A DNA stretch of 64,000 nt from positions 82 through 64,081 of the forward strand of contig SVSK01000002.1 in the NCBI GenBank assembly GCA_015064345.1, given 5' to 3'. Source of the DNA: Oscillospiraceae bacterium (GTDB lineage Bacteria > Bacillota > Clostridia > Oscillospirales > CAG-272). Below the pieces are notes generated by a model. That model ran no database searches. It was not told the DNA's origin and saw only the letters and a program-made list of their open reading frames with translations. The stretch's first letter is position 1; every line of letters begins with the position of its first letter. The translations under genes and the position numbers were made by a program. Shown piece by piece: positions 6,116 to 34,747 of this stretch.

Positions 6116-8005
6116 TTACATAATTTCGCTGAGATATACTCTCTTTGTCTCTCTCGCACCGATACCGATATAGCGTGTGGTATCGCCAAGGTTGATGTAT
6201 TCGCCTGACTCGTCGGTGCATATGGGGTAGATGGAATATGCGTGCACGTCTCCCACAGCGAGAGCTACAGTCTCTTCGCTGTCCTTGGTAATTCGGGTGT
6301 ACTTCTTTGTGAAGTATTCGTATGCAACGTACTCTGTGTCTGCCTTGATATCGGGAACAACGCTCCAGGAGAAGGTTTCGGTCACGTCTTCCTTGCAGAT
6401 ATTGAACAGTGCTACTGCAACAGAGTCGTTCTTACAGTTGTATGTCTTAATGATGCGACCTGTTTCTCTGCAGTTTTCGTAAATGCAATCGTAAGTGGGC
6501 ATTGCGTAGTGATCAAGTCGGTAAATGTCACCGTCTTTACCTGCTACGGGAAGGATGTTATCGCGGTTTGTATCACCTACGGCGTCGCTGATGTACACGG
6601 GTCCGCCGGAAATTGCGCGAAGCAGTCCGCTCTGCACAGGGTCAGACTTGCCCGACCACCACATATCATAGTCGCAATGCATGACCTGTGAGTGCCAGAT
6701 CGCGTTGTAGATGTTCTGCTGAAGATGCTTTGCAAATCCGTCCTCGCGGTGAGGATAGAAGTCGTCGCTGTTTCTTGATATTGCAGTAAACGGACGCAGA
6801 AGCACGTCTTCCATGTCCATACCCATGCAGTTGATGATATTTCCGTCAAAGTTCTTTGCAACGGAGCGTTCAAGAGTCTCGTGCGCAATACCTGTGCTGT
6901 GTACTGTTGAATCATTGCCGTTCCAAATTCCGCCTGTGCTCTGGTTATCAACCTTAACAAAGTCAACACCGCACTCACTCAGATAGCTGTGCCATGTGTC
7001 CCAGAACTTATACTGCTTTTCGGAATCGTTAATGGGAACTACTTTATTGTTTGTAAGGAACAGGCAGTCTGCCATTTCAAGGCCAAGCTTTGACTGTGCA
7101 TCTACGCCCCACCAATATGCGTGAAGCGTATGCCAAACGCCCACGTATTTTATGCCGTAGTCCTCTTTGATGCGGCGGATACACTCCTTCAGTCCCTCGG
7201 GGAACTTTTCTCTGTCTTCCTCAAATGCCTGAAGCTGATTTTCCACTACAGGGGACCAGCCGTCGTCAATGATCATCCATTTGATGGGAATATTCTTTTC
7301 CTTAAATTCGTCAAGCTTCTGATATATCTTCTCGGAAGTGGGCTGCTGGTAGAAAGCATTCCAGCTGCACCAGCCGAATCCTTCAAAAATCTCAGGATAT
7401 TCTCTCTCATCGATAAGCGGAACTCTGATTCCACCCATGTCTCTTGCAAATCGGTAGTTTTTCTCAACAGCCTTTATAGGATCGCTGTCCGCAGTTACCG
7501 AAAGAAAAGCTCCATGAAGTTCGGTGAATCCGTTCTTACCCGCCCAGAAATAAAGTCCGTTTTTGTCAATTTCACAGCGGAACAGGTCTCCGAGAAGGCA
7601 GGTGATGCTTATGTGGTCCTCGCCCTTCTTCGCCAGAATATTCTGAGTTACAAGCTCAATGCCGTTCTTGTGGGCACTCCAACCGCTCATCTTCCAAACG
7701 GGGCAAGTGTCATCATGAATATCCATCATTGCGTCTGCAAACGAGGTATCAACGTCAAGAGTTACCGCACGGTCTGCAAGAGGAGATTCAGACTCGATGT
7801 CAACGGAGTAAAGTGTGCTGTTCCCTACAGTCTTTGCTGTAACAGTCAGCTTTACTCCATCTGATTCGCCGTTCCAAACAGTAGAGCCTTCATCCTTGTT
7901 GGCTACAAGATTGGGCGTAACTGCTCTGCCGTCAGCCAAGTGCACTTTCATCTGCATTCCACTGAGGAAAGCGTCAACAATGTACGATGATGTGATGTTT
8001 TTCAT
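6116..8005 (-). CDS. Raffinose synthase/Sip1-family glycoside hydrolase (GH36-type alpha-galactosidase-like), paralogue B
   Basis: Blocks FGWCSWNAFY, IIDDGWSP, VDFVKVDNQ, NSDDFYP, HCDYDMWWS, LRAISGGPVYISD. No signal peptide. 12-nt spacer with AGGAGG to the upstream paralogue. Confidence 0.85.
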   Translation of the reverse strand: MKNITSSYIVDAFLSGMQMKVHLADGRAVTPNLVANKDEGSTVWNGESDGVKLTVTAKTVGNSTLYSVDIESESPLADRAVTLDVDTSFADAMMDIHDDTCPVWKMSGWSAHKNGIELVTQNILAKKGEDHISITCLLGDLFRCEIDKNGLYFWAGKNGFTELHGAFLSVTADSDPIKAVEKNYRFARDMGGIRVPLIDEREYPEIFEGFGWCSWNAFYQQPTSEKIYQKLDEFKEKNIPIKWMIIDDGWSPVVENQLQAFEEDREKFPEGLKECIRRIKEDYGIKYVGVWHTLHAYWWGVDAQSKLGLEMADCLFLTNNKVVPINDSEKQYKFWDTWHSYLSECGVDFVKVDNQSTGGIWNGNDSTVHSTGIAHETLERSVAKNFDGNIINCMGMDMEDVLLRPFTAISRNSDDFYPHREDGFAKHLQQNIYNAIWHSQVMHCDYDMWWSGKSDPVQSGLLRAISGGPVYISDAVGDTNRDNILPVAGKDGDIYRLDHYAMPTYDCIYENCRETGRIIKTYNCKNDSVAVALFNICKEDVTETFSWSVVPDIKADTEYVAYEYFTKKYTRITKDSEETVALAVGDVHAYSIYPICTDESGEYINLGDTTRYIGIGARETKRVYLSEIM

Positions 8006-8017: not shown

Positions 8018-9904
8018 TCAAAGGATCTCGCTGAGAAGCACTTTCTTTGTTTCTCTTGCGCCGATGCCGATGTAACGTGAGCTGTCACCAAAGTTGATGT
8101 ATTCACCGTCAATGATCGGATAAATTGAATATGCACGAACGTCTCCTGCGCCAAGCGTGACTGCTTCTTCGCTGTCTGCAGTGATTCGTGTGTACTTCTT
8201 TGTGAAGTATTCGTATGCTACGTATTCGGTGTCCGCCTTGATATCGGGAACAACATTCCACTTAAAGGTTTCGCTTATGTCTTCATTGCAGATGTTGAAC
8301 AGTGCTACTGCAACGGCATCTCCCTTGCTGTTAAAGGTCTTGACAAGCTTTCTGTCCTTCTTGCAGTCTATGTAAATGCAGTCGTAAGTGGGCATTGCGT
8401 AGTGGTCAAGACGGCAGATATCACCGTTTTCGCCAACTACAGGGATGATATTGTCGCGGTTTGTGTCGCCGGTAGCGTCGCTGATGTAGATGGGTCCGCC
8501 GGAGATCGCACGAAGCAGGCCGCTCTGCACAGGATCAGACTTGCCGGACCACCACATATCGTAGTCGCAATGCATAACCTGTGAATGCCAGATCGCGTTG
8601 TAGATGTTCTGACGGAGGTGCATCTCGAATCCGTTTTCACGGTCGGGATAGAAGTCGTCGCTGTTGCGGTTCATGGCGGTATACGGTCTTGTCTGAACGT
8701 TTTCAAGGTCCATACCCATGCAGTTTATCACAGTGCCGCCGAAGTGCTTGTTGATAGAACGCTCTATTGCCTCGTGGTTGATCCAAACGCCTTCCATTAC
8801 GGGACAAATTCCGATGTAAAGGTAACCGCATCCGCCCTGGTTGTCAACCTTTACAAAGTCAACACCGCAGTCGCTCAAATAGCTGTGCCAGTCATCCCAG
8901 AACTTGTACTGCTTGTCAAGGTCGTTGACCGGTACTATTCTGCCCCACTCAGGACTGAATACAAGGCTGTCGGCGTGAGACTTATTAAGCTCTGAATCGG
9001 GATGAATGCCCTGCCAATATGCGTGAATAGTGTGCCAAACACCGACTTTTTCAATTCCGTAGTCTTCCTTGATGCGGCGGATACATTCCTTCAGACCCTC
9101 GGGGAACTTTTCTCTGTCTTCCTCAAATGCCTTAAGCTTGTTTCCTTCAACAGGTGACCAGCCGTCATCAATAATGATCCATTTAACGGGGATGTTCTTA
9201 TCCTTCAGCTCATCAAGCTTTGCGTATATCTTCTCGGAGGTGGGCTGCTGATAGAATGCGTTCCAGCTGCACCAGCCGAAATCTTCAAACATTTCGGGAT
9301 ATTCTCTACCATCGCGGAGAGGTACTCTGATAGCACCTACTTCACGTGCATGACGATAGTTAATTTCCATGGACTTGAGCGGGTCGGAAGCCACAGTAAC
9401 AGCCATAACGGGACCGAAGAAACATGTAGATCCCTTTGTTCCAACATAGCAGAAGAGGCCGTCTTTGTCAATGGCGCTGCGGTGCTGTGTGCCAACGAGG
9501 GTGGTAACAGCGTAGTGGTCGTCTCCCAAGCGGAGAAGCATATTCTCACTCTTCTCACCGTGGTTTTTGATCTGGATATCCCATGTGCAGTACATCCAGC
9601 AAGGACCACCGCAGTGGTGGTAGATAAGTGCGTTATCAGCAAAATCTGTCTCCGCAGGCACAATAACAGGTTTATCTCCAAGGGGACGGGTGGACTTTAC
9701 ATCAATGTAGAATACCGCCGATTCTTCTGTGTATTCTGCTTTGAGTACGACTTCCGCATCTTTGCTCTTGCCGAACCAAGACACAGTCTTTCCGTCATCA
9801 AAAAAGCTTACGGGTATGCGCTGTGTGCTGCCGTCTTCGAAATATACGACGGGATTTATTCCCTTAAGCAGGCTGTTCGCCGCTGTTTTTACAAGTTTAT
9901 TCAT
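8018..9904 (-). CDS. Raffinose synthase/Sip1-family glycoside hydrolase (GH36-type alpha-galactosidase-like), paralogue A
   Basis: Same signature blocks (FGWCSWNAFY, IIDDGWSP, VDFVKVDNQ, NSDDFYP, LRAISGGPIYISD). No signal peptide. Confidence 0.85.
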   Translation of the reverse strand: MNKLVKTAANSLLKGINPVVYFEDGSTQRIPVSFFDDGKTVSWFGKSKDAEVVLKAEYTEESAVFYIDVKSTRPLGDKPVIVPAETDFADNALIYHHCGGPCWMYCTWDIQIKNHGEKSENMLLRLGDDHYAVTTLVGTQHRSAIDKDGLFCYVGTKGSTCFFGPVMAVTVASDPLKSMEINYRHAREVGAIRVPLRDGREYPEMFEDFGWCSWNAFYQQPTSEKIYAKLDELKDKNIPVKWIIIDDGWSPVEGNKLKAFEEDREKFPEGLKECIRRIKEDYGIEKVGVWHTIHAYWQGIHPDSELNKSHADSLVFSPEWGRIVPVNDLDKQYKFWDDWHSYLSDCGVDFVKVDNQGGCGYLYIGICPVMEGVWINHEAIERSINKHFGGTVINCMGMDLENVQTRPYTAMNRNSDDFYPDRENGFEMHLRQNIYNAIWHSQVMHCDYDMWWSGKSDPVQSGLLRAISGGPIYISDATGDTNRDNIIPVVGENGDICRLDHYAMPTYDCIYIDCKKDRKLVKTFNSKGDAVAVALFNICNEDISETFKWNVVPDIKADTEYVAYEYFTKKYTRITADSEEAVTLGAGDVRAYSIYPIIDGEYINFGDSSRYIGIGARETKKVLLSEIL

Positions 9905-10974: not shown

Positions 10975-11802
10975 CTATTTCGAAATAAACGGAGTATTTC
11001 TCACATGCGCCTGCAAGCAATAGTCGCCCTTATATCCGATCTCCTTTGCCATGATAAACAATGCAATCAGGTTATGCCTCGGTCTTGAATAATACAGCGT
11101 GCGTTCCTCCCCGTTAATTGTAACTTTCTGCTTCCAGATCATCCTTAGCAGCAACAGATCATCTAATACTTCACCAATACTATCGTTCAGGATTCCGCAC
11201 TCCTTCGCAAGTACCGAGCTTTCAAAAACATAATTCTGAGCTCTATGATACAAGTATATCAAAGCTTTTATTGTGTCAGCACGTGAGAGTGCCGCAAAGA
11301 TCTTTTGCAAATCGTCAATGTTGTTCAAAAAATATCCGTATCCCTCATCCGGCTCGGGAAATACGGAGAAGAACGGCTCTTTTCCGTTAGATACGATTGT
11401 AAACCCGTTATCGCTGAGAATATATGATGATTTTTTCTGAGTTTTGATTTCATCCGGATCATATTTCTTTTCGATCTCCATACGGCAGTTAAATAAGCCG
11501 CGTTCGATCTGCCAGCCTATCTCACGGGCAACGTTGAAGCGCTCTTTTTCCACAGTATTATGAATCAATTTTATAATTCTAGCCGAAATATCTGCCATGG
11601 AAACAGAATCATTCCCAAATAGCTCGTCAAGAGAAACATCAAGCTCGGTGGCAAGAGGGACGAGAAGCGCACCATCGGGGTATGTTTCGCTTGTTTCCCA
11701 TTTTGAAACCGCTTGCGCCGAAACACCGAGCTTTGTGGCAAGCTGCTCTTGTGTCATATTCTTTTCAAGGCGCAATCTTTTGATATTAGCAGACAAACTC
11801 AT
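10975..11802 (-). CDS. XRE-family HTH transcriptional regulator with ~200-aa C-terminal domain
   Basis: N-terminal HTH ..KNMTQEQLATKLGVSAQAVSKWETSETYPD... Paralogue of the upstream gene, 1-nt spacer. Confidence 0.75.
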   Translation of the reverse strand: MSLSANIKRLRLEKNMTQEQLATKLGVSAQAVSKWETSETYPDGALLVPLATELDVSLDELFGNDSVSMADISARIIKLIHNTVEKERFNVAREIGWQIERGLFNCRMEIEKKYDPDEIKTQKKSSYILSDNGFTIVSNGKEPFFSVFPEPDEGYGYFLNNIDDLQKIFAALSRADTIKALIYLYHRAQNYVFESSVLAKECGILNDSIGEVLDDLLLLRMIWKQKVTINGEERTLYYSRPRHNLIALFIMAKEIGYKGDYCLQAHVRNTPFISK

Positions 11803-11803
11803 C

Positions 11804-12667
11804 TTATTTACCTCCGATCATTTTGCATCTGCCGTTGAAATTGTGTTCATACGATTGTCTGCCGCACATTCTCTCAAAAGCAAGCGATATCAAGGACAGA
11901 ACAATTCCATCACCGTAGCACTCATAAACCCTTACTTCACCTTCAGCAAGGTACGCAGTGACACAATGGCATTCACCGACGGAGCAGAATTCGTCGAGGA
12001 TTTCTGTAACACGTTCTTTATTCAATCCCGTTTTGTCCGCAATATAGTCTGCCGTGAAGCTTTCGGAGCAGTTGGTTGAATGAACAAAATAAAGCACGGA
12101 AAGCGCATCTTCGCTCGACAAGAACTTAAAAATCTTAACGATTTCCTTTTGATTATTTACATCATTCATCCATGCAAAGTTTGCCTTATTCCTTAGCATC
12201 ATCACGGCTACATTCACATTTTCTGAGCTTGCTACAAACTCAAAAAATTCATGAATCGATATGTTAGAACGGTAAAAATGTGATATCTCGGACGGAAAAA
12301 CATTTTCCTCGTCATAAACATCATCATAATATTTAGAAACTGTTCCGTACATCGCTGGTACAAGTGCTTTCACCGTTTCAAATGCCTTGAGTACTGATTC
12401 CCGACGGTCAAGTCCTGCAAACAGAGAGCGTATTTCCTCTTTTGTACTTTGCTTTTTGTCCTCGGATAGTCCGAGAAGCGTATCGGTGGTGACGCAGTAA
12501 TATTTTGCAAGTTCTACAAGCATAGGAAGATCCGGCGTTGAAGCGCCATTCTCCCATTTTGAAACAGTTTTATTTGAGACAGATAGGCTTTGTGCCACAT
12601 CTTCTTGCGTTACTCCCTTTGAAGTTCGGAGTTCTGCCAATTTTTCTGCAATCTTGCATTCGTACAT
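11804..12667 (-). CDS. XRE-family HTH transcriptional regulator with ~200-aa C-terminal domain
   Basis: N-terminal HTH ..KGVTQEDVAQSLSVSNKTVSKWENGASTPD... Confidence 0.75.
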   Translation of the reverse strand: MYECKIAEKLAELRTSKGVTQEDVAQSLSVSNKTVSKWENGASTPDLPMLVELAKYYCVTTDTLLGLSEDKKQSTKEEIRSLFAGLDRRESVLKAFETVKALVPAMYGTVSKYYDDVYDEENVFPSEISHFYRSNISIHEFFEFVASSENVNVAVMMLRNKANFAWMNDVNNQKEIVKIFKFLSSEDALSVLYFVHSTNCSESFTADYIADKTGLNKERVTEILDEFCSVGECHCVTAYLAEGEVRVYECYGDGIVLSLISLAFERMCGRQSYEHNFNGRCKMIGGK

Positions 12668-12712
12668 ATTTTTCCCCTCTCAAAAAATTCAAGTTCCGGA
12701 GCTTGTGACTAT

Positions 12713-12741
12713 ATTGTACACAAAACCGTCAGTAGAGTCAA
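12713..12741 (-). promoter_or_regulatory. Promoter of the XRE pair
   Basis: Minus strand TTGACT (12736-12741), 17-nt spacer, TACAAT (12713-12718). Confidence 0.5.
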
Positions 12742-12849
12742 CTGAGCAATATTTTATTATTTCTCCGAAACGGAGATTTATCGCTTTGAAAACAAACGAT
12801 TAGTTGAGCCGTTAAGTCGTGGATATATTTACCATACAGTTGCTTAATA

Positions 12850-12865
12850 CGAGGTTCAGAATCCT
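12850..12865 (+). repeat. Direct repeat copy 2 (CGAGGTTCAGAATCCT)
   Basis: Exact 16-nt match to 10912-10927. Confidence 0.8.
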
Positions 12866-12894
12866 CTATATCAAACTCCCCCCCCACTTTCCCC

Positions 12895-12923
12895 TTGCAT
12901 TTCAGCTACAAATGTGGTAAAAT
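12895..12923 (+). promoter_or_regulatory. Promoter of the GH32 gene
   Basis: TTGCAT (12895-12900), 17-nt spacer ending in TGg, TAAAAT (12918-12923). Confidence 0.5.
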
Positions 12924-12954
12924 AATGGCAAACCCACACACGGAGGCGACACTT

Positions 12955-14511
12955 ATGAAAATAGAAATAAAGCACAGATATCTTGTGTTTCCCGTTAACA
13001 CATTCTCTCCGCAGATAAAGTTCCGTTTTTATGACGAGGGAGACGAGGTGTATTACCTCAACGTCAAGTTAAATCCCGACGAGCCTACTTTTGCCGCTTA
13101 CGTTGACATGGAAAGATACATGGGCAAAACCATCGAGATCAAAACTTTCCCCGAGGTGGAAATTGTATATTCCGAGGCGGACACAATGAATCTGCCGAAT
13201 CTCTATAAAGAGCCCTACCGCCCCCAGGTTCACTTCACAACAAAGAACGGTTGGCTGAACGACCCCAACGCTCTTATCTACGTAAACGGTGAATACCACA
13301 TGTTCTACCAGCACAACCCTTGCGAGAGCAAATGGAACAATATGCACTGGGCACACGCTGTGAGTCCCGACCTTATCCACTGGACAGAGCTTGGTATCGC
13401 CCTCGGTCCGGACAAGTACGGCGAGATCTTCTCAGGAAACGCATTCATTGATAAAGACAACCTTCTCGGCCACAAGGTGGGTGACGAAGATGCCGTTCTC
13501 CTCTACTACACGGGCACTTCCCCTCTCGCCCAGTATCTGGCATATTCAAATGACGGAATGAAGACCTTCCACAAGTACGGGGAGCCTGTAGTGCCGAAGA
13601 TCCTCAACACCAGCACCGACCCGCAGGTGATCTTCTGCGACGAGTGGAACACTTACATAATGTCTCTCTATCTTGAAAACGATATGTTCGGAATTCTGAG
13701 ATCGGATGATCTTCTTAACTGGGAGCTTGTTCAGAGAATTCAGCTTCCGGGGGATAAAGAATGTCCCGATCTCTTCCCGATGGTGGCAGACGACGGTAAG
13801 CGCAAGTGGGTGCTGATCGGTGCGAGAAACCGCTACCTTGTAGGCGACTTCACAAGCGACGGATTCGTGCCTACACAGGAAGTACTCTCATTCAGCCACT
13901 CAAGCTCTGCTTATGCAGGTCATACGTTCTGCGAGCTTCCGAATAATCGCAAGGTTAGGCTGGACTGGGAGCAGTGGAATCAGCCGTTCTTCCTCTTCTC
14001 TATCTACGGTCAGATGAGCGTTCCTTACGAGCTGAGGCTTGAAAAGCACGGAGACATCTATTATCTTTGCGGCGAGCTGATATCCGAGTTCGAGACTCTT
14101 TACGACGGCAGCTCTTCTTATGAAAATATTGAGATTCAGCAGAGAAAGCCTTTCATTATCCCCATCGAGCAGAAGCCTTATGTGGTTAAAATGAGCTGTA
14201 CTGCTGAGGATGCAGAGGTTGAGCTGTCACTCTTTGGCCGCACTCTGTACTTTGACACAAAACAGAACATAGTTTCCTTTGGCGGAGGCAGAACCGCTCC
14301 CATATCATACACCTCGGGCAAAATTGATCTGACTCTGGTCATTGACACGTTCAGTAATGAGATGTTCCTTGACGGCGGCAAGATCTACGTTGGCCTTGTT
14401 GACCGCGAGGTTGCTCCAAACTACAACTTCACAAAGCTTGACATCTATTCCGACAAGGATATTACGGTAGAAAAGCTTGAACTTCACCCTCTTAAGTCCA
14501 TGTGGGAATAA
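12955..14511 (+). CDS. Glycoside hydrolase family 32 (beta-fructofuranosidase / sucrose-6-phosphate hydrolase-like), cytoplasmic
   Basis: WLNDPNALIYVNGEYHMFYQHNP (nucleophile block), TDPQV (RDP-like block), KECPDLF (acid/base block). No signal peptide. ATG 12955 lies 8 nt after GGAGG and downstream of the promoter, so track start 12895 is rejected. Confidence 0.85.
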   Translation: MKIEIKHRYLVFPVNTFSPQIKFRFYDEGDEVYYLNVKLNPDEPTFAAYVDMERYMGKTIEIKTFPEVEIVYSEADTMNLPNLYKEPYRPQVHFTTKNGWLNDPNALIYVNGEYHMFYQHNPCESKWNNMHWAHAVSPDLIHWTELGIALGPDKYGEIFSGNAFIDKDNLLGHKVGDEDAVLLYYTGTSPLAQYLAYSNDGMKTFHKYGEPVVPKILNTSTDPQVIFCDEWNTYIMSLYLENDMFGILRSDDLLNWELVQRIQLPGDKECPDLFPMVADDGKRKWVLIGARNRYLVGDFTSDGFVPTQEVLSFSHSSSAYAGHTFCELPNNRKVRLDWEQWNQPFFLFSIYGQMSVPYELRLEKHGDIYYLCGELISEFETLYDGSSSYENIEIQQRKPFIIPIEQKPYVVKMSCTAEDAEVELSLFGRTLYFDTKQNIVSFGGGRTAPISYTSGKIDLTLVIDTFSNEMFLDGGKIYVGLVDREVAPNYNFTKLDIYSDKDITVEKLELHPLKSMWE

Positions 14512-21216: not shown

Positions 21217-21286
21217 TTGCTGTAGACTTCACGGAAGATTTATGGTATAATGATTTCATTGAAATACCAAAAAGCAAAGGAACGCT

Positions 21287-23875
21287 ATGAAAAATCTTGT
21301 TGTAGGGATCCTTGCTCATGTTGACGCGGGTAAGACTACACTATCGGAAGCCCTGCTCTACACCACCGGTAAAATAAAAAAAGCCGGACGTGTGGATCAT
21401 CGCAACACTTACCTTGACACCCATGAGCTTGAAAGAGACCGCGGGATCACAATTTTCTCCAAGCAGGCGATATTTGAAACGCCGAACATAAAGGTCACTC
21501 TGCTTGACACCCCCGGTCACGTGGATTTTTCAGCGGAGGCAGAGCGTACCTTGTCTGTACTCGACTATGCCATTCTCGTTATCAGCGGAAGCGAGGGAGT
21601 GCAGGCACACACGGATACTCTCTGGCATCTTCTTGAGAGATACTCCGTTCCAACCTTTATTTTCGTTACGAAAATGGATCTTTCCCCTTATGACAAAGAG
21701 CATTTAATGAAGGATCTTACCGCCCATCTCTCCCAGTCTTGCGTGGACTTTACAACTGCAGAGGATCTTCACGAGCGCGTTGCTATGACGGACGAAGATG
21801 TGCTCGAGAAGTTCATGGACTGCGGTACGGTAGATGAAAGCGATATAATTCGGCTTACTGCTGACAGGCACCTGTTCCCTTGCTTCTTCGGAAGTGGGCT
21901 AAAAATGGACGGTGTTGACGCCCTCATCTCCGCATTGGAGAACTACACCGCAGAAAAAAAGTATCCCGATGAGTTCTCAGCACGAGTATATAAGATAGGT
22001 CATGACACAAACGGCGCAAAAATCACTTATCTGAAGGTCACTGGCGGCAAGCTGAATCAGCGGCAGGTACTCAAATATACTCCCGTGGGTGAAGAAGAGC
22101 CCATTGAAGAAAAGATCACGGGGATCCGAGCATATTCGGGCGCGAAATTCGATCCCATAGATTCTTGTCCTGCAGGTCAGGTATGCGCCGTTATGGGCCT
22201 CTCAGGCACGTACAGCGGTCAGGGTCTCGGTGGCGAAAGCACAACTTCCACGCCTTATCTCGAGCCGGTCCTCAACTACCGCATAGTACTTCCGAAGGAT
22301 GCTGACCCGAGAGTCATTCTGCCAAAGCTAAAGATGCTTGAGGAAGAAGAACCTCTGCTCCACATCGTTTGGAACGAACGCTTCGGTGAGATACACGCCC
22401 AGCTTATGGGACAGGTACAGTGTGAAATTCTCGTAAGTCTTATAAAAGACCGCCTCGGAATCGACGTAAGCTTTGCAGACGGAAACATCATGTATAAGGA
22501 AACGATTACAAGCGCGGGCGAGGGCGTTGGACATTTCGAGCCGCTCAGACACTATGCCGAAGTACATCTCATTCTCGAACCTCTCCCCCGCGGTTCGGGA
22601 CTTGTGTTTGACTCCATTGCAGACGAAGATCATTTTGAGAGAAACTGGCAGAGGCTTGTGCTGTTTTTTCTTGAAGCAAAGACGCATCTCGGCGTGCTGA
22701 CAGGCTCTCCCATAACCGATATGAAGATTAGCCTTGTTTCGGGCAGAGCTCATCTGAAACACACAAGCGGTGGAGATTTCCGTGAAGCCACTTACCGCGC
22801 TGTACGTCACGGACTTATGATGCTCCGCGAAAAAGGAAAATGTGAGATCCTTGAGCCGTACTACGCATTCAGTCTTGAGGTTCCCGGTGAATGTATCGGG
22901 CGTGCCATGTCTGATATCGTTGCCAGACACGGAACATTTACCGAACACGAATCTGCACCCGGAACATCCCGTCTTGTTGGTCGCGCTCCGGTTGCTTCAA
23001 TTTCCGATTATGCGAAAGAAGTGGCGTCTTACACCCATGGCAAGGGACGCTTCTCCTGTAGAGTTGACGGATACTACCCCTGCCACAACAGCGACGAGAT
23101 AATTGCACAGTTCTCATACGAGCCTGAAGCGGATCTTGACAATACCCCTGACTCGGTGTTCTGTTCGCACGGCGCGGGATTTGTTGTACCGTGGTGGCAG
23201 GTGACAGATTACATGCATCTCGGTCTCTGTGACATAAGCTATGACACTCCGCCTGAACTGATGAAAGCGCCTGAGGTAATTCAGCGTAACATCAACATTG
23301 ACGAAAAAGAGCTTGAGGCGATAATGGAGCGCGAGTTTGGCCCAATTAAACGCAGAGTCTACGGAAAAGCCAAGGAGCAGGCGCACTTACCTGACGTTAA
23401 GAATCCGAAATACAAAAAATCCCTCTACGTCATCGACGGATACAACGTCATCTTTGCCTGTCCTGAGCTTGCCGCAATTGCGGAGCACGATCTCGAAACT
23501 GCGCGGCGTGACCTATGTGATATTCTCGCAAATTACCACGGATTCACAAAGCGCGACATCGTTGTGGTGTTTGACGCGTATAATGTGAAGGGCTCGGTTG
23601 AGAGAAAATTCAGCCACAATGGCATAAACGTAGTCTACACCAAAGAGGACGAGCTCGGAGATACTTACATTGAAAAGTTCGTTGACAAGATCGGCAGAGA
23701 CTACAACGTGCGCGTGGTAACCTCCGACGGTCTCGTTCAGCTTCAGGCATTCCGTTCCGGTGTTTTGCGCCTGTCCGCGAGAGAATTTTGGAATGAGATC
23801 ACCGCAGTAGATGAAGAGATAAACGAAATTCTGAAAGAACTGAAGAAAAATACAGTAAAACCGCAAAAGTCATGA
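21287..23875 (+). CDS. Translational GTPase (EF-G/TetM-like, aa 1-~620) fused to a YacP/Rae1-type NYN ribonuclease domain (aa ~713-835)
   Basis: G1 AHVDAGKTT, G2 RGITI, G3 DTPGH, G4 TKMD. Domain V-like ILEPYYAFSLEVP. C-terminal LYVIDGYN..VVVFDAYNVKG..YTKEDELGDTYIE..VVTSDG..LSAREF. TGgTATAAT upstream at about 21250. Confidence 0.8.
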   Translation: MKNLVVGILAHVDAGKTTLSEALLYTTGKIKKAGRVDHRNTYLDTHELERDRGITIFSKQAIFETPNIKVTLLDTPGHVDFSAEAERTLSVLDYAILVISGSEGVQAHTDTLWHLLERYSVPTFIFVTKMDLSPYDKEHLMKDLTAHLSQSCVDFTTAEDLHERVAMTDEDVLEKFMDCGTVDESDIIRLTADRHLFPCFFGSGLKMDGVDALISALENYTAEKKYPDEFSARVYKIGHDTNGAKITYLKVTGGKLNQRQVLKYTPVGEEEPIEEKITGIRAYSGAKFDPIDSCPAGQVCAVMGLSGTYSGQGLGGESTTSTPYLEPVLNYRIVLPKDADPRVILPKLKMLEEEEPLLHIVWNERFGEIHAQLMGQVQCEILVSLIKDRLGIDVSFADGNIMYKETITSAGEGVGHFEPLRHYAEVHLILEPLPRGSGLVFDSIADEDHFERNWQRLVLFFLEAKTHLGVLTGSPITDMKISLVSGRAHLKHTSGGDFREATYRAVRHGLMMLREKGKCEILEPYYAFSLEVPGECIGRAMSDIVARHGTFTEHESAPGTSRLVGRAPVASISDYAKEVASYTHGKGRFSCRVDGYYPCHNSDEIIAQFSYEPEADLDNTPDSVFCSHGAGFVVPWWQVTDYMHLGLCDISYDTPPELMKAPEVIQRNINIDEKELEAIMEREFGPIKRRVYGKAKEQAHLPDVKNPKYKKSLYVIDGYNVIFACPELAAIAEHDLETARRDLCDILANYHGFTKRDIVVVFDAYNVKGSVERKFSHNGINVVYTKEDELGDTYIEKFVDKIGRDYNVRVVTSDGLVQLQAFRSGVLRLSAREFWNEITAVDEEINEILKELKKNTVKPQKS

Positions 23876-23900
23876 TAGGCTGATGCGGTTTTTCCTTTTT
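23857..23900 (+). terminator. Terminator after the GTPase-NYN gene
   Basis: AACCGCA (23859-23865) pairs with TGCGGTT (23884-23890), followed by a T run. The stem spans the stop codon. Confidence 0.6.
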
Positions 23901-23964
23901 ATGTATAGCCAAGCAAGTACGGTGGAATAATATGCTTGAACAAACAGAAAGCGAGGAATAATCA

Positions 23965-28535: not shown

Positions 28536-28635
28536 TCGAATAGCGAAAAAATATTTATTTTGATGTTCCATTTTTCAGAAAGATATGCTATAATTTAGTT
28601 TAGCGACAATAATAACTTATTTTTTGGAGACAATC

Positions 28636-29979
28636 ATGAGAAAACTTATTACTCTGGCACTCCTGATATCATCGCTGCTCTGCCTTGCATTGTCTGTTGA
28701 GGCAACAGTCGGCACAGTCATCTACGGCTACAAAACTAATGAAAAGCCAAACATGGAAAAAATCGACGAATCCTGGGGTGAGCCTGTTATCTACGTTACA
28801 AAGGATACTCCCAATGCCGAGCTTCACAAATACTGGTCTGAAAAAATAGACACCTGCAATTTCTCTCAACCGGGAACTTCCAGACAGCTGATCGAACCCG
28901 AACCCAGTGATTTTTGGCTGTACGTAACCTATGACGAGAAGAATATCTACATAGGTCTCAAATCTCCCGACACCGAGATCAGCGGTAGCGAAGAAACTCA
29001 TCGCGGCGACGGTGCACGTGTGTGGCTACAGCCTCTCGTTACCATGAAAAATCCATATTCGGATTATGGCCTTCCCTCCCATCTCACCGAATACGATCAA
29101 GAGTATTTGGATATGGAATCCTATTACAACTTCTATTGGAATCTCAATATGTATGAAAACGGGGTTGACACACTCTTTGCCGCACACTATGTGTACAATG
29201 TGCAGATCAACTTCCACGACGGATATATGCACGCAACGATTGAGATCCCTAAAATAAACATGGGACTGCAGAAGAACGATGACCCACACGGACTGGAATT
29301 CGGAATATGCGTTATGCGTATCAGCTCACGCTCGGCAAGTGATGAAGGGTACGCGGGCTGGCTGACATGGGGCGCAACTCTCCGAGACTACACCCCTACC
29401 CCAACAAGTGTCAATACGCTGATCCTTCTTGACCCGGCACAGATAGTTCCCGAGACTGACGCTCCCGAGACTGACGCTCCCGAGACTGACGCTCCCGAGA
29501 CTGACACTCCTGAGACCGACGCTCCTGAAACCGATGCTCCCGAGACCGACGCTCCCGAGACTGATGCTCCCGAAACTGACGCTCCCGAGACCGACGCTCC
29601 CGAGACTGACGCTCCCGAGACCGACGCTCCCGAGACTGAAGCTCCTGAGACTGATGCTCCCGAGACTGGTGCTCCCGAGACCGATGCTCCCGAAACTGTT
29701 GCTCCCGAGACTGATGCTCCCGAAACTGTTGCTCCCGAGACTGACGCTCCCGAGACTGACGCTCCCGAGACCGATGCTCCCGAAACTGTTGCTCCCGAGA
29801 CTGACGCTCCCGAAACTGACGCTCCCGAAACTGACGCTCCCGAAACTGACGCTCCCGAAACTGACGCTCCTGCTGAACCTGCCAAGAAGAATAATACCGG
29901 TCTCATAATCGGAATAGTGGCAGCCGTCATAGCAGTTGGTGCAATTGCAGGTGTCGTTATAACAAAGAAAAAGAAATAA
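28636..29979 (+). CDS. Type-I membrane-anchored surface protein: signal peptide, ~250-aa CBM9/DOMON-like domain, (PETDA)28 stalk, C-terminal TM anchor
   Basis: MRKLITLALLISSLLCLALSVEA signal. 28 pentapeptide repeats. C-terminal GLIIGIVAAVIAVGAIAGVVITKKKK. ATG 28636 lies 6 nt after GGAG. Domain assignment is tentative. Confidence 0.6.
   Translation: MRKLITLALLISSLLCLALSVEATVGTVIYGYKTNEKPNMEKIDESWGEPVIYVTKDTPNAELHKYWSEKIDTCNFSQPGTSRQLIEPEPSDFWLYVTYDEKNIYIGLKSPDTEISGSEETHRGDGARVWLQPLVTMKNPYSDYGLPSHLTEYDQEYLDMESYYNFYWNLNMYENGVDTLFAAHYVYNVQINFHDGYMHATIEIPKINMGLQKNDDPHGLEFGICVMRISSRSASDEGYAGWLTWGATLRDYTPTPTSVNTLILLDPAQIVPETDAPETDAPETDAPETDTPETDAPETDAPETDAPETDAPETDAPETDAPETDAPETDAPETEAPETDAPETGAPETDAPETVAPETDAPETVAPETDAPETDAPETDAPETVAPETDAPETDAPETDAPETDAPETDAPAEPAKKNNTGLIIGIVAAVIAVGAIAGVVITKKKK
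29449..29868 (+). repeat. Intragenic tandem repeat, 28 units of 15 bp (consensus CCCGAGACTGACGCT = P-E-T-D-A)
   Basis: Units counted directly. Variants are mostly synonymous (GAG/GAA, ACT/ACC, GAC/GAT), with a few D>V/E/G/T substitutions. Confidence 0.95.
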
Positions 29980-29998: not shown

Positions 29999-30985
29999 AT
30001 GAAAAAGATTTTAGCTCTTTCCCTTCTCACTGTTCTCATTTTTGTCTTCGCAATCGCAGCCAACGCCGCTGTCGGAACTGTCGTATACGGTTACAAAACC
30101 AATGAGGTTCCAAATCTCGAGATTATTGATGAAACATGGGGCGAGCCATCAATCTATGTAGATAAGAACTCCCCCAATACCGAGCTCCACAAATACTGGA
30201 CAGAAGAGATCGACACAAGCTACTATGCTCATGGCGGCACAGGCCCCAACGGCAGACAGAACATCAATCCCGAGGAATCCGATTTTTGGATGTATATCCT
30301 GTATGACGACACAAACCTCTACGTTGCTGTAAAATCCCCTGACGTTCTCCCCTCCGGTTGTGATTCTCTTCACAGAGGCGACGGCGTTCATCTGTACATC
30401 CAGCCCCTGTCTGAGATGGCAAACCCTTACAATGACTACGGTATGGCAGACGGACTCACCGAATATGACGATGAATTCCAGGCACTTGAAGAATACTACC
30501 ATTTTTACTGGAATCTTAACAAAACCTGCGACGGTGTTGACAAAATCTATGCCGGTCTCCGCGCAGAAGTTGCAAATATCACCTTCGCTGACGGTTATAT
30601 GCATGCAATACTTTCCGTTCCACTTTCCAATTTCGGACTTGAAGAGGGCGAAGATCTCACAAACTTTGAATTCGGAACAAGCATGATGCGTTGCAGCTCT
30701 CTCAATCTTTATGACGAGGGTTATGCGGGATGGCTTTCATGGGGTGCAACTCTCAGCGAATACACAAAAACTCCCGAAAGCGTGAACACGATCATTCTTC
30801 TGGACGAAGAAAAGATTCCTGTAAAGACAGATGAAGCAGATCAGGAGCCTGAAAACGAGGTGAATAACGGCGATACACCCAAGGCAGAAAAGGACAACAC
30901 TGCTCTTGTAATCGCTATCGTTGCAATCGCTCTCGCAGTTATCGAAGCTGCAGTCATTGTTATCATTGTAAAGACAAAGAAATAA
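29999..30985 (+). CDS. Paralogous type-I membrane-anchored surface protein lacking the long repeat
   Basis: N-terminal domain collinear with the upstream gene (VGTV(I/V)YGYKTNE.PN.E.IDE(S/T)WGEP, LHKYW(S/T)E(K/E)ID, HRGDG, YYNFYWNLN/YYHFYWNLN, EGYAGWL(T/S)WGATL). C-terminal TM followed by KTKK. Confidence 0.6.
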   Translation: MKKILALSLLTVLIFVFAIAANAAVGTVVYGYKTNEVPNLEIIDETWGEPSIYVDKNSPNTELHKYWTEEIDTSYYAHGGTGPNGRQNINPEESDFWMYILYDDTNLYVAVKSPDVLPSGCDSLHRGDGVHLYIQPLSEMANPYNDYGMADGLTEYDDEFQALEEYYHFYWNLNKTCDGVDKIYAGLRAEVANITFADGYMHAILSVPLSNFGLEEGEDLTNFEFGTSMMRCSSLNLYDEGYAGWLSWGATLSEYTKTPESVNTIILLDEEKIPVKTDEADQEPENEVNNGDTPKAEKDNTALVIAIVAIALAVIEAAVIVIIVKTKK

Positions 30986-32386: not shown

Positions 32387-34747
32387 ATGAGCAAGAAAAC
32401 CAAGGCTACATCCGGTGCGGATGAAAGAACCCCATCTCTTCCCCAATACTTTTCTTGGATCAACAGCACAAATGAAGGTTCCACAGAAGAACAGACAGTA
32501 ACTAACCTTGAGTATTTCAAGTGGCTCCATGACACACACGGCATGAAGCTCAAAATATATGCGTGGGACGCTGGTAACCTTGACGGTGCAGGCTACTACG
32601 ACAACCCCAATGAGTCCGAAAGACTTAAGAAGCAGTACCCGAACGGATACAAGCCCTGCGTTGACAAGGCTGCTGAATTCGGATGCCATCTCGGTGTATG
32701 GGGCGGTGCAGACGGCTATGGTGACACTCCCGAAGAGGAAGCAAAGCGCCATGAGCTTCTCGTATCTCTCTGCCGTGACCTCGGCTTTATGCAGTTCAAG
32801 TTTGACGCGGTATGCGGATGGCCCAGAGAAGAAAAGCACCTCATGTTCAAGAAGACCATGGATGAGTGCCGTCAGTACGTTCCCGACCTCATCGTTCTTA
32901 ACCACCGTCTCTGGCTTGGCGAAGGTGAAATCGCTGCGACAACTTATCTTGTAGAAGGTGTTGAGACATACATCGACGTTCACACATTCAATGAGATCTC
33001 CGGGCCTCACCACCGTATGGCACCTCTCACCCGCGCGCTTGTTCCCGGACTGAAGAGACTTGCTGAGGACCACGGTGTGTGCATCTCCTCCTGTATCGAC
33101 TATTTCGAGGACGATCTTATAATTCAGGCGTTCTCCCGCTGTCTCATTCTCGCGCCCGAGATCTACGGTAACCCCTGGCTTATGCGCGACGATGAGCAGG
33201 CAAGACTTGCAAAGATCTACAACATTCACGCAAAGTATGCTGATATTCTCGTGAACGGCATGCCCCTTTCCGAGGAGATATACGGTCGCAACGCTATCTC
33301 CCGCGGTGATGCTGATACACGTCTTATCACATTTGTAAACTCTTCTTGGGAAGCAAAGACTGTAAAGATCAATATTTCCGAAGATATTGCTCTCTCCGAC
33401 TGCGAGGGTAAGGAGTACGTTGTTAAGTATATTCATCCCTACGAAGAGCACATTGCTACCGTTAAGGCCGGAGAAGACGTAATGATCGAGATCGAGCCTG
33501 CACGCGCTGCGCTTATTCTCGTACAGGAAAAGAGCAGATTCGAGAAGGAAGATTTCGTCCTCACAGGATGTAAGTACGAAACCGTTTACGGTCCCGGTGC
33601 TGAAGCAGAAAAGGTTCGTATCTTCAAGGCAAACGGTGCAATCGGCTCCATCGGCAAGAGATCCGTTGACTATGCCGCAATCGTCGGCGACAACACAATC
33701 GCACGTCCTGTGGCACTCGGTACACTCAAAGCCGCTCCCGTTCCCGCAAATATCGAACAGCTTTACGAAGCGACCTGCTTTGCGGCTGACTGCGATTCTC
33801 TCGAATATCAGTCTCTCAAGCGTTCGGGCGAAACAAAGATTAGAGAGGTTAAGGCTGCCCGTGATGCATTCTTCGCACAGGAGTCCTACATTTTCCGCGG
33901 AACTGAATCAAGAGCAATGTTTGACGGCAATCCCGACACATTCTTTGACACCGACTCCAAGTACAGAAAGACAAGACTGGGCGGCGGCTGTCTCCGTGTG
34001 GATCTTGGCGATGCTTATGACATCAGCCGCGTTGAAATTGAAACTTTCGCTGTAAACGAAGCAGATCCTCAGCTTCAGGAGGCACATTTCGAGCCTATGG
34101 CACAGGTTTCTCTTGATCTTGCAGACTGGACTGATGCTCCTCTTCTCGGCGTAGCTGAAGCAGATGAGTTAAGCAAAATCCCCACAATTCTCGACTTCTG
34201 CCACCTGACAAATTATCGTGAAGGCAAGAGATGCGTTGCTACTTACACAGTAAACGCAAAGGCACGCTACTTCCGTCTGCCCGATCCCATGGACAGAATC
34301 TTCTCCTTCACCGCTTACGATAAGGACGGCAATAAAATCAATCTCACCGCGCCTCATGCAAACAACATGCTCGCGCCTTACGCAAAGACAGGATTCACCT
34401 CCGCTCGTTCTCTCAAGGTAACTCTTCCCGAAAGCTACTCCGATGGTGCGTACATCGCTGTCGGTACAGACGGTATCCACGGAGTTGAAGGTGTTTACTG
34501 TGCACTTGAGATCAACGGTGTGCCTGTTGGCGCATATGACCGTGCTTGCAGCTACCCCTTCAACAACTGGGAATATATTGCACCCAGTCCCGAGTCAGGT
34601 TTCACCTACTACTTCCGCCTCACTCCCGAAATGAAGGGCAAGGAGATCACTCTCCACGCATTCTACAAGGAAGACTGCCAGGTAGTTACAAAGGCGTGGG
34701 TATGTGACTCCAACTTCAAAAAACCCATTGCTGAGCTGAATATATAA
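32387..34747 (+). CDS. Hypothetical 786-aa cytoplasmic protein: N-terminal glycosidase-like region plus F5/8 type C (discoidin)-like domain
   Basis: No signal peptide. ..FDGNPDTFFDTDSKYRKTRLGGGCLRVDLGDAYDISRVEIE.. resembles a discoidin/CBM32 core. N-terminal ..LKIYAWDAG.. and ..MQFKFDAVCG.. are loosely reminiscent of TIM-barrel glycosidases. ATG lies 6 nt after GGAGG. Confidence 0.45.
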   Translation: MSKKTKATSGADERTPSLPQYFSWINSTNEGSTEEQTVTNLEYFKWLHDTHGMKLKIYAWDAGNLDGAGYYDNPNESERLKKQYPNGYKPCVDKAAEFGCHLGVWGGADGYGDTPEEEAKRHELLVSLCRDLGFMQFKFDAVCGWPREEKHLMFKKTMDECRQYVPDLIVLNHRLWLGEGEIAATTYLVEGVETYIDVHTFNEISGPHHRMAPLTRALVPGLKRLAEDHGVCISSCIDYFEDDLIIQAFSRCLILAPEIYGNPWLMRDDEQARLAKIYNIHAKYADILVNGMPLSEEIYGRNAISRGDADTRLITFVNSSWEAKTVKINISEDIALSDCEGKEYVVKYIHPYEEHIATVKAGEDVMIEIEPARAALILVQEKSRFEKEDFVLTGCKYETVYGPGAEAEKVRIFKANGAIGSIGKRSVDYAAIVGDNTIARPVALGTLKAAPVPANIEQLYEATCFAADCDSLEYQSLKRSGETKIREVKAARDAFFAQESYIFRGTESRAMFDGNPDTFFDTDSKYRKTRLGGGCLRVDLGDAYDISRVEIETFAVNEADPQLQEAHFEPMAQVSLDLADWTDAPLLGVAEADELSKIPTILDFCHLTNYREGKRCVATYTVNAKARYFRLPDPMDRIFSFTAYDKDGNKINLTAPHANNMLAPYAKTGFTSARSLKVTLPESYSDGAYIAVGTDGIHGVEGVYCALEINGVPVGAYDRACSYPFNNWEYIAPSPESGFTYYFRLTPEMKGKEITLHAFYKEDCQVVTKAWVCDSNFKKPIAELNI

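Follow-up and report, generated by a model that had tools for sequence, protein, structure and literature searches.

The locus and its expression signals

The gene considered here lies on the forward strand of a 64,000-nucleotide stretch of an Oscillospiraceae genome (contig SVSK01000002.1; the window), and the coding sequence and the signals that frame it are as follows.

21223..21251, +, promoter-like site: −35 TAGACT, a 17-nt spacer and the extended −10 TGGTATAAT (10 of 12 consensus positions, plus the TG)
21276..21282, +, ribosome-binding site AAAGGAA, 5 nt before the ATG, read from the sequence
21287..23875, +, whole coding sequence, 862 amino acids and a stop codon, with an ATG start
23857..23903, +, terminator: hairpin at 23857-23892, then a U-run

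The original prediction had placed an 862-codon ORF at 21287-23875 and this was found exactly so, as were all the motifs quoted from the protein (AHVDAGKTT, RGITI, DTPGH, TKMD, VIDGYN, VVFDAYNVKG, YTKEDELGDTYIE, VTSD and SAREF) and the absence of a stop codon at the junction of its two halves. Since a single ORF is present in 80 of 80 species-level orthologous loci, a frameshift or assembly artefact at the junction is ruled out. The gene also has its own terminator as claimed, with a hairpin of dG −16.6 kcal/mol (z = −3.9) that none of 200 shuffled sequences equalled in stability, although a simple consensus scan overlooked it. Of the claimed promoter, the extended −10 is indeed there and well placed (21243-21251, 36 nt upstream of the ATG), but promoter-like matches are no rarer in the region than chance would give (2 found, 3.0 expected), and so position is its sole support. 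The 5' UTR is some 30 nt long and an attenuator or leader peptide would not fit in it. The gene is neighboured by recR and a Mn-catalase gene within what is housekeeping DNA (SRP RNA, dnaX, ybaB, recR), and no mobile-element genes were found near it in this window.

The GTPase, the linker and the nuclease

The protein divides into nine parts, all encoded on the same strand.

21287..21961, +, G domain, residues 1-225: G1 AHVDAGKT, G2 T55, G3 DTPGH (catalytic His78), G4 TKMD, G5 GSGL (Pfam GTP_EFTU at residues 4-221, E=7e-49)
21971..22474, +, EF-G domains II and III, residues 229-396 (Pfam EF-G_D2 229-308 and EFG_III 326-396, both slightly below gathering score)
22484..22831, +, domain IV, residues 400-515, with tip loop I GVGHFEPLRHYAEVH (413-427) and loop III GRAHLKHTSGGDFR (486-499) (Pfam EFG_IV 400-510)
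22841..23080, +, domain V, residues 519-598 (Pfam EFG_C 520-602, E=1.7e-18)
23081..23221, +, conserved C-terminal element, residues 599-645, CHN..Y.PE.D..NTPDSVFCSHGAGFVVPW..V..YMH, a predicted helix / beta-hairpin / helix domain (AF2 pLDDT 85-92)
23222..23302, +, disordered variable tether 1, residues 646-672 (AF2 pLDDT <50)
23303..23353, +, short conserved helix, residues 673-689, EKELEAIMEREFGPIKR, consensus [DE]xEL..I[FM]ER.[FY]G (AF2 helix at 673-684)
23354..23419, +, disordered variable tether 2, mildly basic, residues 690-711 (AF2 pLDDT <50)
23420..23854, +, Rae1/YacP-type NYN nuclease domain, residues 712-856 (Pfam NYN_YacP, PF05991, at 715-855, E=9.4e-43)

Residues 1-598 are, as judged from their sequence, a catalytically competent translational GTPase of the EF-G/Tet superfamily. 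All 81 orthologues keep the G1 motif, T55 of G2 and the DTPGH of G3, together with the K and D of a G4 pattern [NT]KxD, and G5 reads GS[AG]L. G4 itself is NKMD in 73 of the 81 and TKMD in the subclade of this gene, a replacement that we count against the mechanism favoured below. The five-domain architecture of EF-G is present, with GTP_EFTU, EFG_IV and EFG_C over the Pfam cut-offs and the two models for domains II and III just under, and a Foldseek search returns ribosome-bound EF-G over the full fold (E=4e-52 across ~690 columns) as well as TetM (7e-44). By sequence the best full-length match in the PDB is TetM (2e-70, 241 bits, ~28% identity), whereas domains IV and V taken alone score 58 bits with EF-G and 46 with TetM. 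The domain IV tip loops are family-specific, near-invariant in the 81 orthologues, and few other segments of the protein are as well conserved, which argues for a specific contact with the decoding centre, and H489 at the tip aligns with the tip His573 of T. thermophilus EF-G. The GTPase is a distinct Firmicute subfamily, marked by the domain IV loop I GHFEPLRHYAEVH and by a folded C-terminal element of 50 amino acids.

That element lies in what had been taken for a plain linker of about 90 residues, a description that holds for two variable and disordered tethers but not for the folded, conserved stretch at 599-645 nor for the conserved helix at 673-689. The element measures 50-52 amino acids in all 81 orthologues, with C599, Y611, D616, S623, F625, C626, G629, W636 and H644 at least 95% conserved, and no Pfam family matched it. 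Beyond it a tether of ~65 amino acids, mostly disordered and with the one short conserved helix, connects the GTPase module to the NYN nuclease. Tether 1 varies from 20 to 77 amino acids among orthologues and exceeds 200, rich in Gly, Ser and Ala, in two of them (P0157 and P0172), and tether 2 varies from 19 to 61 with K and R making up 24% of its residues, while the helix between them keeps to 19-21 amino acids and retains E675 in 80 and I679 in 78 of the 81. Disorder and a span of 20 to more than 200 amino acids across the family fit a leash and not a rigid joint. The AF2 model does not inform on how the NYN domain is placed with respect to the GTPase.

For the nuclease half the HMM scan gave 146.5 bits with NYN_YacP against a cut-off of 24.6, and the earlier GTPase domain calls were likewise correct. 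The block-for-block likeness to Rae1 was borne out, since residues 713-852 align with residues 3-142 of B. subtilis YacP/Rae1 (5mq8/5mq9; E=1.9e-21), and D717, D763, D792 and D814, the counterparts of Rae1 D7, D53, D81 and D104, are all intact. All 81 orthologues have the first two of these and 80 have each of the last two, and D717 is followed directly by the GYN motif as defined for NYN_YacP (Matelska 2017, PMC5499597). The published catalytic mutant of Rae1 is D7N D81N (PMC10351889), equivalent here to D717 and D792. Across 62 diverse sequences, with identities as low as 36%, no active-site residue of either half varies, and both active sites are under selection.

A clostridial family and its split relatives

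The original prediction named no characterised example of the architecture. Tet-NYN_YacP fusions of identical architecture (GTP_EFTU, EF-G II-V, NYN_YacP) in the same taxon were in fact recorded in Clostridia by Atkinson 2015 (PMC4342817; BMC Genomics 16:78), where a role in resistance was proposed, and by Matelska 2017 (PMC5499597; NAR 45:6995), and the ORF at 21287-23875 is a member of that family. Both surveys gave it one paragraph ("ten species", role "unclear", possibly resistance; PMC4342817, PMC5499597), and the absence of a characterised example did stand in that no experimental study of these fusions was found in the literature. New here are the size of the family, the missing Tet drug-displacing loops, the structure of the C-terminal element and tether, and the lactobacillal relatives that are without a NYN domain.

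A census of the architecture finds it in at least 80 species of several orders and in at least 290 clusters at 50% identity. A search with the C-terminal module gave 290 representatives at 50% identity (E<=1e-30), with linker and NYN domain together in all of the best 150, and the closest named relatives are from Oscillospiraceae, Ruminococcaceae and Clostridia MAGs. Orthologues are 53% identical on average, and just 1 of 3240 pairs exceeds 90%. Pairwise identities of the GTPase and NYN halves (means 58% and 57%) are correlated (r=0.71). The fusion is old and its halves have co-diverged as one unit. The gene is vertically inherited over whole orders with graded divergence, as is typical of a housekeeping gene. 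Across the 80 loci there is no conserved operon partner, the best neighbour family occurring in 13 and in mixed orientation, and so genomic context lends no functional support. The cysS-mrnC-rlmB-yacP-sigH locus was not found among them, and no stand-alone rae1 was seen within 1.45 Mb of fusion-bearing DNA. A 2026 census of Rae1, made without a size filter, would not have told the fusions apart from plain Rae1.

Relatives of the GTPase that are without the NYN domain are chromosomal across the Lactobacillaceae and 49% identical over residues 1-644; examples are WP_087449157 of L. salivarius and proteins of Companilactobacillus, Levilactobacillus and Pediococcus, named "translation factor GTPase family protein". 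They have a loop I (GVGHFEPLRHY.EVH) identical to that of the fusion and also the C-terminal element, but differ in loop III (G.AS[NI]VHSVGGDFR as against G.AH.KHTEGGDFR in the fusion) and end 10-20 residues past the element, the tether, helix and NYN domain all being absent. Lactobacillaceae with this GTPase carry a separate Rae1 gene for a product of 172-190 amino acids, and the two occur together in Levilactobacillus zymae (P0356 and P0475). As read from these sequences, the separate lactobacillal genes and the clostridial fusion make a split/fused (Rosetta-stone) gene pair. This relation strengthens the reading that the GTPase delivers or gates the nuclease, and it singles out the lactobacillal EF-G paralogue as a candidate partner for Rae1.

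Function and comparison with known systems

Rae1 is a translation-dependent mRNA endonuclease that acts on stalled or collided ribosomes and feeds tmRNA (PMC12407103; PMC13622287). At a probability of roughly 0.55, we favour the fusion being a self-contained, ribosome-targeted endoribonuclease, a GTP-gated and self-delivering form of Rae1. Like EF-G and TetM, the GTPase would occupy the factor-binding site of the ribosome and reach with domain IV into the decoding centre, and in docking would recognise a ribosome that is stalled, whether its A site is vacant or its translocation is blocked (a collided ribosome). The tethered nuclease would thereby be brought to the mRNA, to cut as stand-alone Rae1 does and so yield a truncated message for tmRNA rescue, and GTP hydrolysis would then free the factor from the ribosome. 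Given that GTPase and Rae1 are separate genes in Lactobacillaceae and fused in Clostridia, the fusion would be a clostridial, sensor-fused Rae1 pathway.

The cut had originally been placed at the ribosomal A site. This is outdated. The cut site as mapped lies where the mRNA leaves the stalled ribosome, far from the factor-binding site of that ribosome, which counts against the favoured explanation, and the geometry works only via a long tether or with docking on the trailing ribosome. It is also to be set against this explanation that the top curated profile match is still a Tet ribosomal-protection model. A bolder version, which we hold only tentatively and would not bet on at even odds, gives the family the part of Rae1 in the Clostridia that dominate the gut (Lachnospirales, Oscillospirales), as a one-polypeptide, GTP-gated no-go-decay machine, in which the EF-G-like sensor would dock on a ribosome that is translocation-blocked (trailing, collided) or A-site-vacant, the leashed NYN domain would only then reach inter-ribosome mRNA, and GTP hydrolysis would serve for both proofreading and release. 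By extension, the missing recruiter that brings stand-alone Rae1 to ribosomes in trans would be the NYN-less paralogue of lactobacilli. Translational GTPases would then, if this is true, include a new functional class whose members sense stalled ribosomes so that the mRNA is cleaved.

Among the alternatives, an unlikely one that nevertheless survives better than the rest is that the GTPase binds immature or damaged ribosomes as a biogenesis or turnover factor and that rRNA (or tRNA), not mRNA, is what its NYN domain processes or cuts. Some EF-G-family paralogues do function in subunit maturation, and a Tet-like factor would be expected to have its C-terminus near h44 and the decoding centre. 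Stand-alone yacP lies within its operon next to genes for rRNA-processing and rRNA-modifying enzymes, and at one fusion locus (L025) mrnC lies two genes downstream, but this neighbourhood is limited to 1 of the 80 loci. Experiments with Rae1 show translation-dependent cutting of mRNA and not of rRNA (PMC12407103, PMC10351889, PMC13622287), and no rRNA-processing defect of rae1 mutants was found reported in the Rae1 literature examined.

Less likely again is a ribosomal protection protein against tetracycline or another A-site antibiotic, with a nuclease that adds to or modifies resistance, as Atkinson 2015 put forward (PMC4342817). The top NCBIfam match is indeed tet_protect (NF012153), TetM is the best full-length PDB match as noted above, and NCBI names some members TetM/TetW/TetO/TetS family. 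The likeness to TetM and TetO extends to the five-domain EF-G-like GTPase and, judging by alignment length, probably to the absence of the G' insertion, so that "TetM-type" holds for overall similarity. It does not hold for the residues of domain IV that define Tet proteins, nor for the curated models, all of whose cut-offs are missed by far (397 bits against an equivalog cut-off of 775 for NF012153, 265 against 1100 for NF033148, 227 against 1420 for tet_protect_M). Loop III of TetM contacts the tetracycline site through Y506-Y507-S508-P509-V510-S. In the fusion family this YYSPVS is replaced by a near-invariant AH.KHT (here A-H-L-K-H-T) and PPNPFWAS of TetM loop I by P-LRHYAE, the short C-terminal helix of TetM gives way to the 50-amino-acid domain, and domains IV-V are closer to EF-G. 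TetM genes are mobile, whereas the fusion gene is chromosomal and vertically inherited, and horizontally spread tet genes are without the gradual divergence seen here. The missing loop residues, the sub-cut-off scores, the housekeeping surroundings free of mobile-element genes and the gradual divergence together make a resistance gene unlikely, and the short 5' UTR, with no room for an attenuator, also speaks against one. Genes of this kind are routinely annotated as "TetM/TetW/TetO/TetS family tetracycline resistance" in gut commensals and probiotic lactobacilli, which probably inflates resistome counts.

A defence or toxin-type effector, in which a trigger such as phage infection would lead the ribosome-bound GTPase to unleash the nuclease on translated mRNAs (abortive infection), is improbable. 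A 2026 preprint speculates that Rae1-type cleavage could target phage mRNAs (PMC13622287), and in A. rectalis a BrnT/CopG toxin-antitoxin pair adjoins the gene; yet the protein fits none of the PADLOC models, the 80 loci share no defence-island setting, no immunity partner is evident, and inheritance is vertical over whole orders, unlike that of patchy defence genes. Least probable of all is a catalytically silent NYN domain that does no more than bind RNA or the ribosome, attached to an alternative translocase (an EF-G2-like stress paralogue): domain IV is EF-G-like in its tip His and in its loop III pattern G..H...[ST]...F, and the NYN-less relatives are presumably functional without a nuclease, but the four aspartates and GYN are invariant over 62-81 diverse sequences, unexpected for a decayed active site, the EF-G loop I GGRGQ[YF]GH is absent, being replaced by a loop 4 residues shorter (GHFEPLRHY), and the canonical EF-G (fusA) equivalog TIGR00484 is missed at 251 bits against 659.

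The favoured reading, a Rae1 that carries its own GTPase, is best set beside Rae1 itself. The two have in common the NYN_YacP fold, the GYN motif and the four aspartates, at ~38% identity over 140 residues, but Rae1 of B. subtilis is a single domain of 170 amino acids encoded in the operon cysS-mrnC-rlmB-yacP-sigH, whereas the domain of the fusion ends a GTPase of 862 amino acids whose genomic context is unrelated. The contact of Rae1 with the ribosome is transient, which is why there is no ribosome-bound structure of it (PMC13622287), whereas the fusion has a built-in module of a type predicted to bind ribosomes. Fusion to a factor-site GTPase offers a concrete hypothesis for the recognition of stalled or collided ribosomes by Rae1, and a fusion that is GTPase-dead (H78A) or GDPCP-locked, and nuclease-dead (D717N/D792N), should remain ribosome-bound long enough for cryo-EM.

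The logic proposed here, of sensing a stalled or collided ribosome, cutting or releasing its mRNA and passing it to rescue, is shared with SmrB of E. coli, Cue2 of yeast and Dom34/Pelota-Hbs1. In such no-go-decay systems the hand-over is to tmRNA or to Ski/Xrn1, and Hbs1 is a translational GTPase that brings in an A-site factor. Their folds are unrelated to those of the fusion (an SMR domain, an eRF1-like protein), and in them nuclease and GTPase are separate, with no EF-G-family fusion, whereas in the clostridial protein the two are joined in a single polypeptide.

Architecture, integrity and age of the fusion

The GTPase and the NYN nuclease are encoded by a single ORF, and the promoter, terminator and domains that had been read from the sequence were all found where they had been placed, the domain calls being correct by Pfam profile scan and, for the NYN part, by alignment of the B. 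subtilis YacP/Rae1 structure (5mq8/5mq9) to residues 713-852 (E=1.9e-21).

Features of the fusion gene (window coordinates) and Pfam domains of its product (residues)
21223-21251: promoter-like site with extended -10, TAGACT-17-TGGTATAAT, 36 nt 5' of the ATG
21287-23875, + strand: fusion ORF, 862 aa, single ORF
23857-23903: terminator-like hairpin and U-run, 3' of the stop codon (dG -16.6 kcal/mol, z = -3.9)
residues 4-221: GTP_EFTU (E=7e-49)
residues 229-308: EF-G domain II
residues 326-396: EF-G domain III
residues 400-510: EF-G domain IV
residues 520-602: EF-G domain V / EFG_C
residues 715-855: NYN_YacP (E=9.4e-43)

Promoter-like sites of the kind at 21223-21251 occur in the region at a frequency not below chance. 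An internal promoter or start giving a separate NYN product can be rejected, the match at 23298-23325 being within chance expectation and no Met occurring from there to the NYN domain. An assembly or frameshift artefact is ruled out as the origin of the fusion by the 80 orthologous loci, in every one of which a single frame without a stop runs through GTPase and NYN, and so the unsplit in-frame junction of the original prediction is borne out. A search of 5.8 billion proteins gave more than 120 clusters, 60-100% identical and without exception of the same Pfam architecture, and among GTDB species, each represented by one genome, at least 80 full-length fusion loci were found. Among the 80 loci listed the hosts are Oscillospiraceae, Ruminococcaceae, Acutalibacteraceae, many Lachnospiraceae genera, Eubacteriaceae, Anaerovorax and Fusibacter, cultured strains included. 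Cultured carriers of the fusion are for example Intestinimonas butyriciproducens An565, Flavonifractor hominis, Anaerovorax odorimutans DSM 5092, Fusibacter sp. 3D3, Lachnospiraceae NC2004, Agathobacter rectalis and Monoglobus pectinilyticus. Clustered at 50% identity, the C-terminal module (residues 590-862) has 290 representatives (E<=1e-30), and linker and NYN occur together in all of the best 150 of these 290; apparently stand-alone proteins of the 'linker+NYN' type (about 290 aa) start within domain V and are gene calls that lack their N-terminal part.

Pairwise identity in the window protein and 80 species-level orthologues is graded from 43 to 96% (mean 53%, one pair above 90%), and the GTPase and NYN halves co-diverge (r=0.71, mean identities 58% and 57%). 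Such graded, coupled divergence indicates a fusion made once, long ago, and inherited largely vertically. A full-length fusion of 50% identity on a 6.7 kb contig (CAVEPP010000094.1) binned as Alloprevotella sp. (Bacteroidota) is probably bin contamination, or possibly a horizontal transfer.

Conservation across these 81 sequences shows both catalytic centres to be intact and under selection. G1 AHVDAGKT, G2 Thr55 and G3 DTPGH with its catalytic His78 are kept in 81/81, and G4 (residues 127-131, window 21665-21679) reads NKMD in 73 and TKMD in eight including the window protein, the latter form also being that of all 17 of its close homologues. G5 co-varies with G4, being SGL in the TKMD subclade versus SAL elsewhere. 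All four catalytic aspartates expected from Rae1 are present: D717 and D763 (81/81) and D792 and D814 (80/81) correspond to Rae1 D7, D53, D81 and D104, of which D7 and D81 are those changed in the published catalytic mutant, D7N D81N (PMC10351889). GTPase motifs and NYN aspartates are likewise invariant in the diverse 62-sequence alignment, down to 36% identity.

Linker anatomy and genomic setting

From the 62-sequence alignment AlphaFold2 builds a model of good confidence (pLDDT 86.5, pTM 0.69) in which residues 599-645 form a small helix / beta-hairpin / helix domain (pLDDT 85-92), followed by disorder at 652-672 and 690-707 on either side of a short helix at 673-684, and then by a well ordered NYN domain. 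This model supersedes a first run on 17 close homologues (pLDDT 69.6) that had left residues 615-710 wholly disordered. The C-terminal element at 599-645 is of fixed length across orthologues (50-52 aa) and conserves C599, Y611, D616, S623, F625, C626, G629, W636 and H644; the first disordered stretch is between 20 and 77 aa long, depending on the species, and the helix in the tether keeps the pattern [DE]xEL..I[FM]ER.[FY]G. No Pfam family matched residues 590-714 in a scan at E<=10. From the fixed-length conserved element, the predicted fold and the variable disorder a four-part anatomy is modelled: a ribosome-binding GTPase, a small C-terminal domain, a flexible leash bearing one conserved helix, and the nuclease. 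In some family members, such as P0157 (1069 aa) and P0172 (993 aa), the variable stretch that separates the C-terminal element from the conserved helix is precisely where Gly/Ser/Ala-rich low-complexity inserts of 150-250 aa are found.

The fusion gene lies after an SRP RNA-dnaX-ybaB-recR cluster and before a Mn-catalase gene, and no integrase, transposase or conjugation gene was found among the window ORFs scanned. The dnaX-ybaB-recR context recurs in 0-2 of the 80 orthologous loci, across which no operon partner or conserved neighbour exists; by all-against-all clustering the commonest neighbour family is a MATE-type transporter (13/80, mixed orientation), and the HTH-gene association noted by Matelska 2017 (PMC5499597) is not recurrent. 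The housekeeping context, a 5' UTR too short for an attenuator, the lack of a match to any PADLOC defence model and the graded, co-diverging halves speak against acquisition of the gene as a resistance or defence determinant. In Agathobacter rectalis, and in no other of the loci examined, a divergent BrnT/CopG toxin-antitoxin pair (5313-5821 of that locus) sits directly upstream of the fusion gene.

Elsewhere in the window sugar-utilisation genes are abundant (GH32, GH18-LysM, melibiase, MFS), and a transporter-glycosidase fusion is unusual. SRP RNA, dnaX and the following genes form the classic Firmicute ffs-dnaX-ybaB-recR cluster; as called, the dnaX ORF starts at 18509 and overlaps the SRP RNA, and so translation probably begins about 54 nt further on, at the Met of 'MHQALYRKYRP'.

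Other features of the window
6116-8005 and 8018-9904, - strand: two tandem Raffinose_syn/GH36-like paralogues
10975-11802 and 11804-12667, - strand: two tandem XRE-type HTH proteins, about 280 aa
18247-18512, + strand: bacterial large SRP RNA (166 bits), directly 5' of dnaX
38104-41091, + strand: 995-aa ORF, MFS transporter (residues 30-375) and GH2 glycosidase domains (500-874)
4536-5891 (-), 28624-29979 (+), 29999-30985 (+), 32387-34747 (+), 42417-43520 (+): ORFs of 328-786 aa with no Pfam match at E<=1e-5

Relatives lacking the nuclease and the stand-alone Rae1

By tblastn of plasmid records full-length fusions are found in Monoglobus and Agathobacter, and 639-aa proteins 49% identical over residues 1-644 on Ligilactobacillus salivarius megaplasmids. 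These NYN-less proteins have loop I (a tip loop of GTPase domain IV) and the entire C-terminal element as in the fusion and end 10-20 residues further on. They are intact genes and not IS-truncated fusions: strain S32 carries this 639-aa gene in surroundings free of IS elements, and chromosomal homologues without NYN (59-63% identity, 640-665 aa) are widespread throughout Lactobacillaceae, in variable contexts. The other tip loop, loop III, differs systematically, being G.AH.KHTEGGDFR in fused proteins (H489 in 79/81, K491 in 81/81) versus G.AS[NI]VHSVGGDFR in 12 of 12 NYN-less ones. Wrong annotation of the NYN-less subfamily is widespread, the names given being TetM, TetO or 'elongation factor G'. 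In S32 the gene adjoins an ArsR/SmtB regulator, DsbA, an rpsN paralogue and a 'metal homeostasis' gene. These neighbours, taken with a C-terminal element rich in Cys and His, may point to a connection with metals.

Lactobacillaceae also have a separate Rae1 (172-190 aa) at the canonical cysS-mrnC-rlmB-rae1-sigH locus, and Levilactobacillus zymae has both this and the NYN-less GTPase (P0475 and P0356). Clostridial fusion and lactobacillal GTPase plus Rae1 make a classical fused/split gene pair, from which we infer that the GTPase subfamily is functionally tied to Rae1. No genomic link between the two lactobacillal genes was found, their neighbours being variable. No stand-alone rae1 was found in the window, the 80 loci and the two replicon stretches L082 and L084, which together make up 1.45 Mb of part-genomes, nor any NYN match beyond the fusion in the Monoglobus and Agathobacter records searched (part-genomes). 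In one of the 80 loci, from an uncultured Oscillospiraceae, a Mini-RNase III (mrnC) homologue lies two genes 3' of the fusion (12505-13409 of that locus), reminiscent of the canonical mrnC-rlmB-rae1 operon.

The novelty claim of the original prediction needs correcting, the architecture having been recorded before: 'TetM-NYN_YacP fusion proteins' of unclear role in some Clostridia were noted by Matelska et al. 2017 (PMC5499597). A full-text literature search found no experimental study of such fusions, and the SEED label 'tetracycline resistance related proteins, group 2' led to nothing informative. The window ORF is a member of a documented, experimentally uncharacterised family. A 2026 preprint took its Rae1 census by hmmsearch (E<1e-10) with no size filter (PMC13622287), and so presumably counted the fusions as ordinary Rae1.

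Proposed ribosome docking and comparison with Tet proteins and EF-G

EF-G and Tet factors occupy the ribosomal factor-binding site and reach into the decoding centre with domain IV. By Foldseek the fusion GTPase matches ribosome-bound EF-G and TetM, which supports such docking. The original interpretation is partly supported: the proposed GTPase-delivered mRNA nuclease is plausible, its premise that Rae1 cuts at the ribosomal A site being in need of correction. Most economically, the GTPase half would recognise a stalled ribosome, the leashed nuclease would then cut the mRNA, and GTP hydrolysis would drive release. In geometric terms the canonical Rae1 cut site, seen from the trailing ribosome, would also lie some 15 nt downstream of the A site, and so at that ribosome's mRNA entry channel beside the factor-binding site; a fusion protein docked on a trailing ribosome that is blocked in translocation would thus have its nuclease where the cut is made. 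The fusion is of real interest because it brings the question of Rae1 targeting to stalled ribosomes within experimental reach.

Among curated profiles tet_protect fits the GTPase best, with 397 bits (cut-off 775), and none of the Tet and EF-G equivalog profiles reaches its cut-off with the fusion protein. At the aligned positions the TetM drug-site loop III KYGLYYSPVSTPADFR is VSGRAHLKHTSGGDFR in the fusion, and loop I PPNPFWAS is P-LRHYAE. Domains IV-V alone score 58 bits to EF-G and 46 to TetM; the EF-G tip histidine aligns with H489, although the EF-G loop I is four residues longer. Among the best-kept parts of the whole protein in the 81 sequences are two family-specific loops, GxGH[FY]EPLRHYAEVH and G[RK]AHxKHTEGGDFR. 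Judged on sequence, the GTPase is Tet-like overall, yet neither a Tet protein nor an EF-G.
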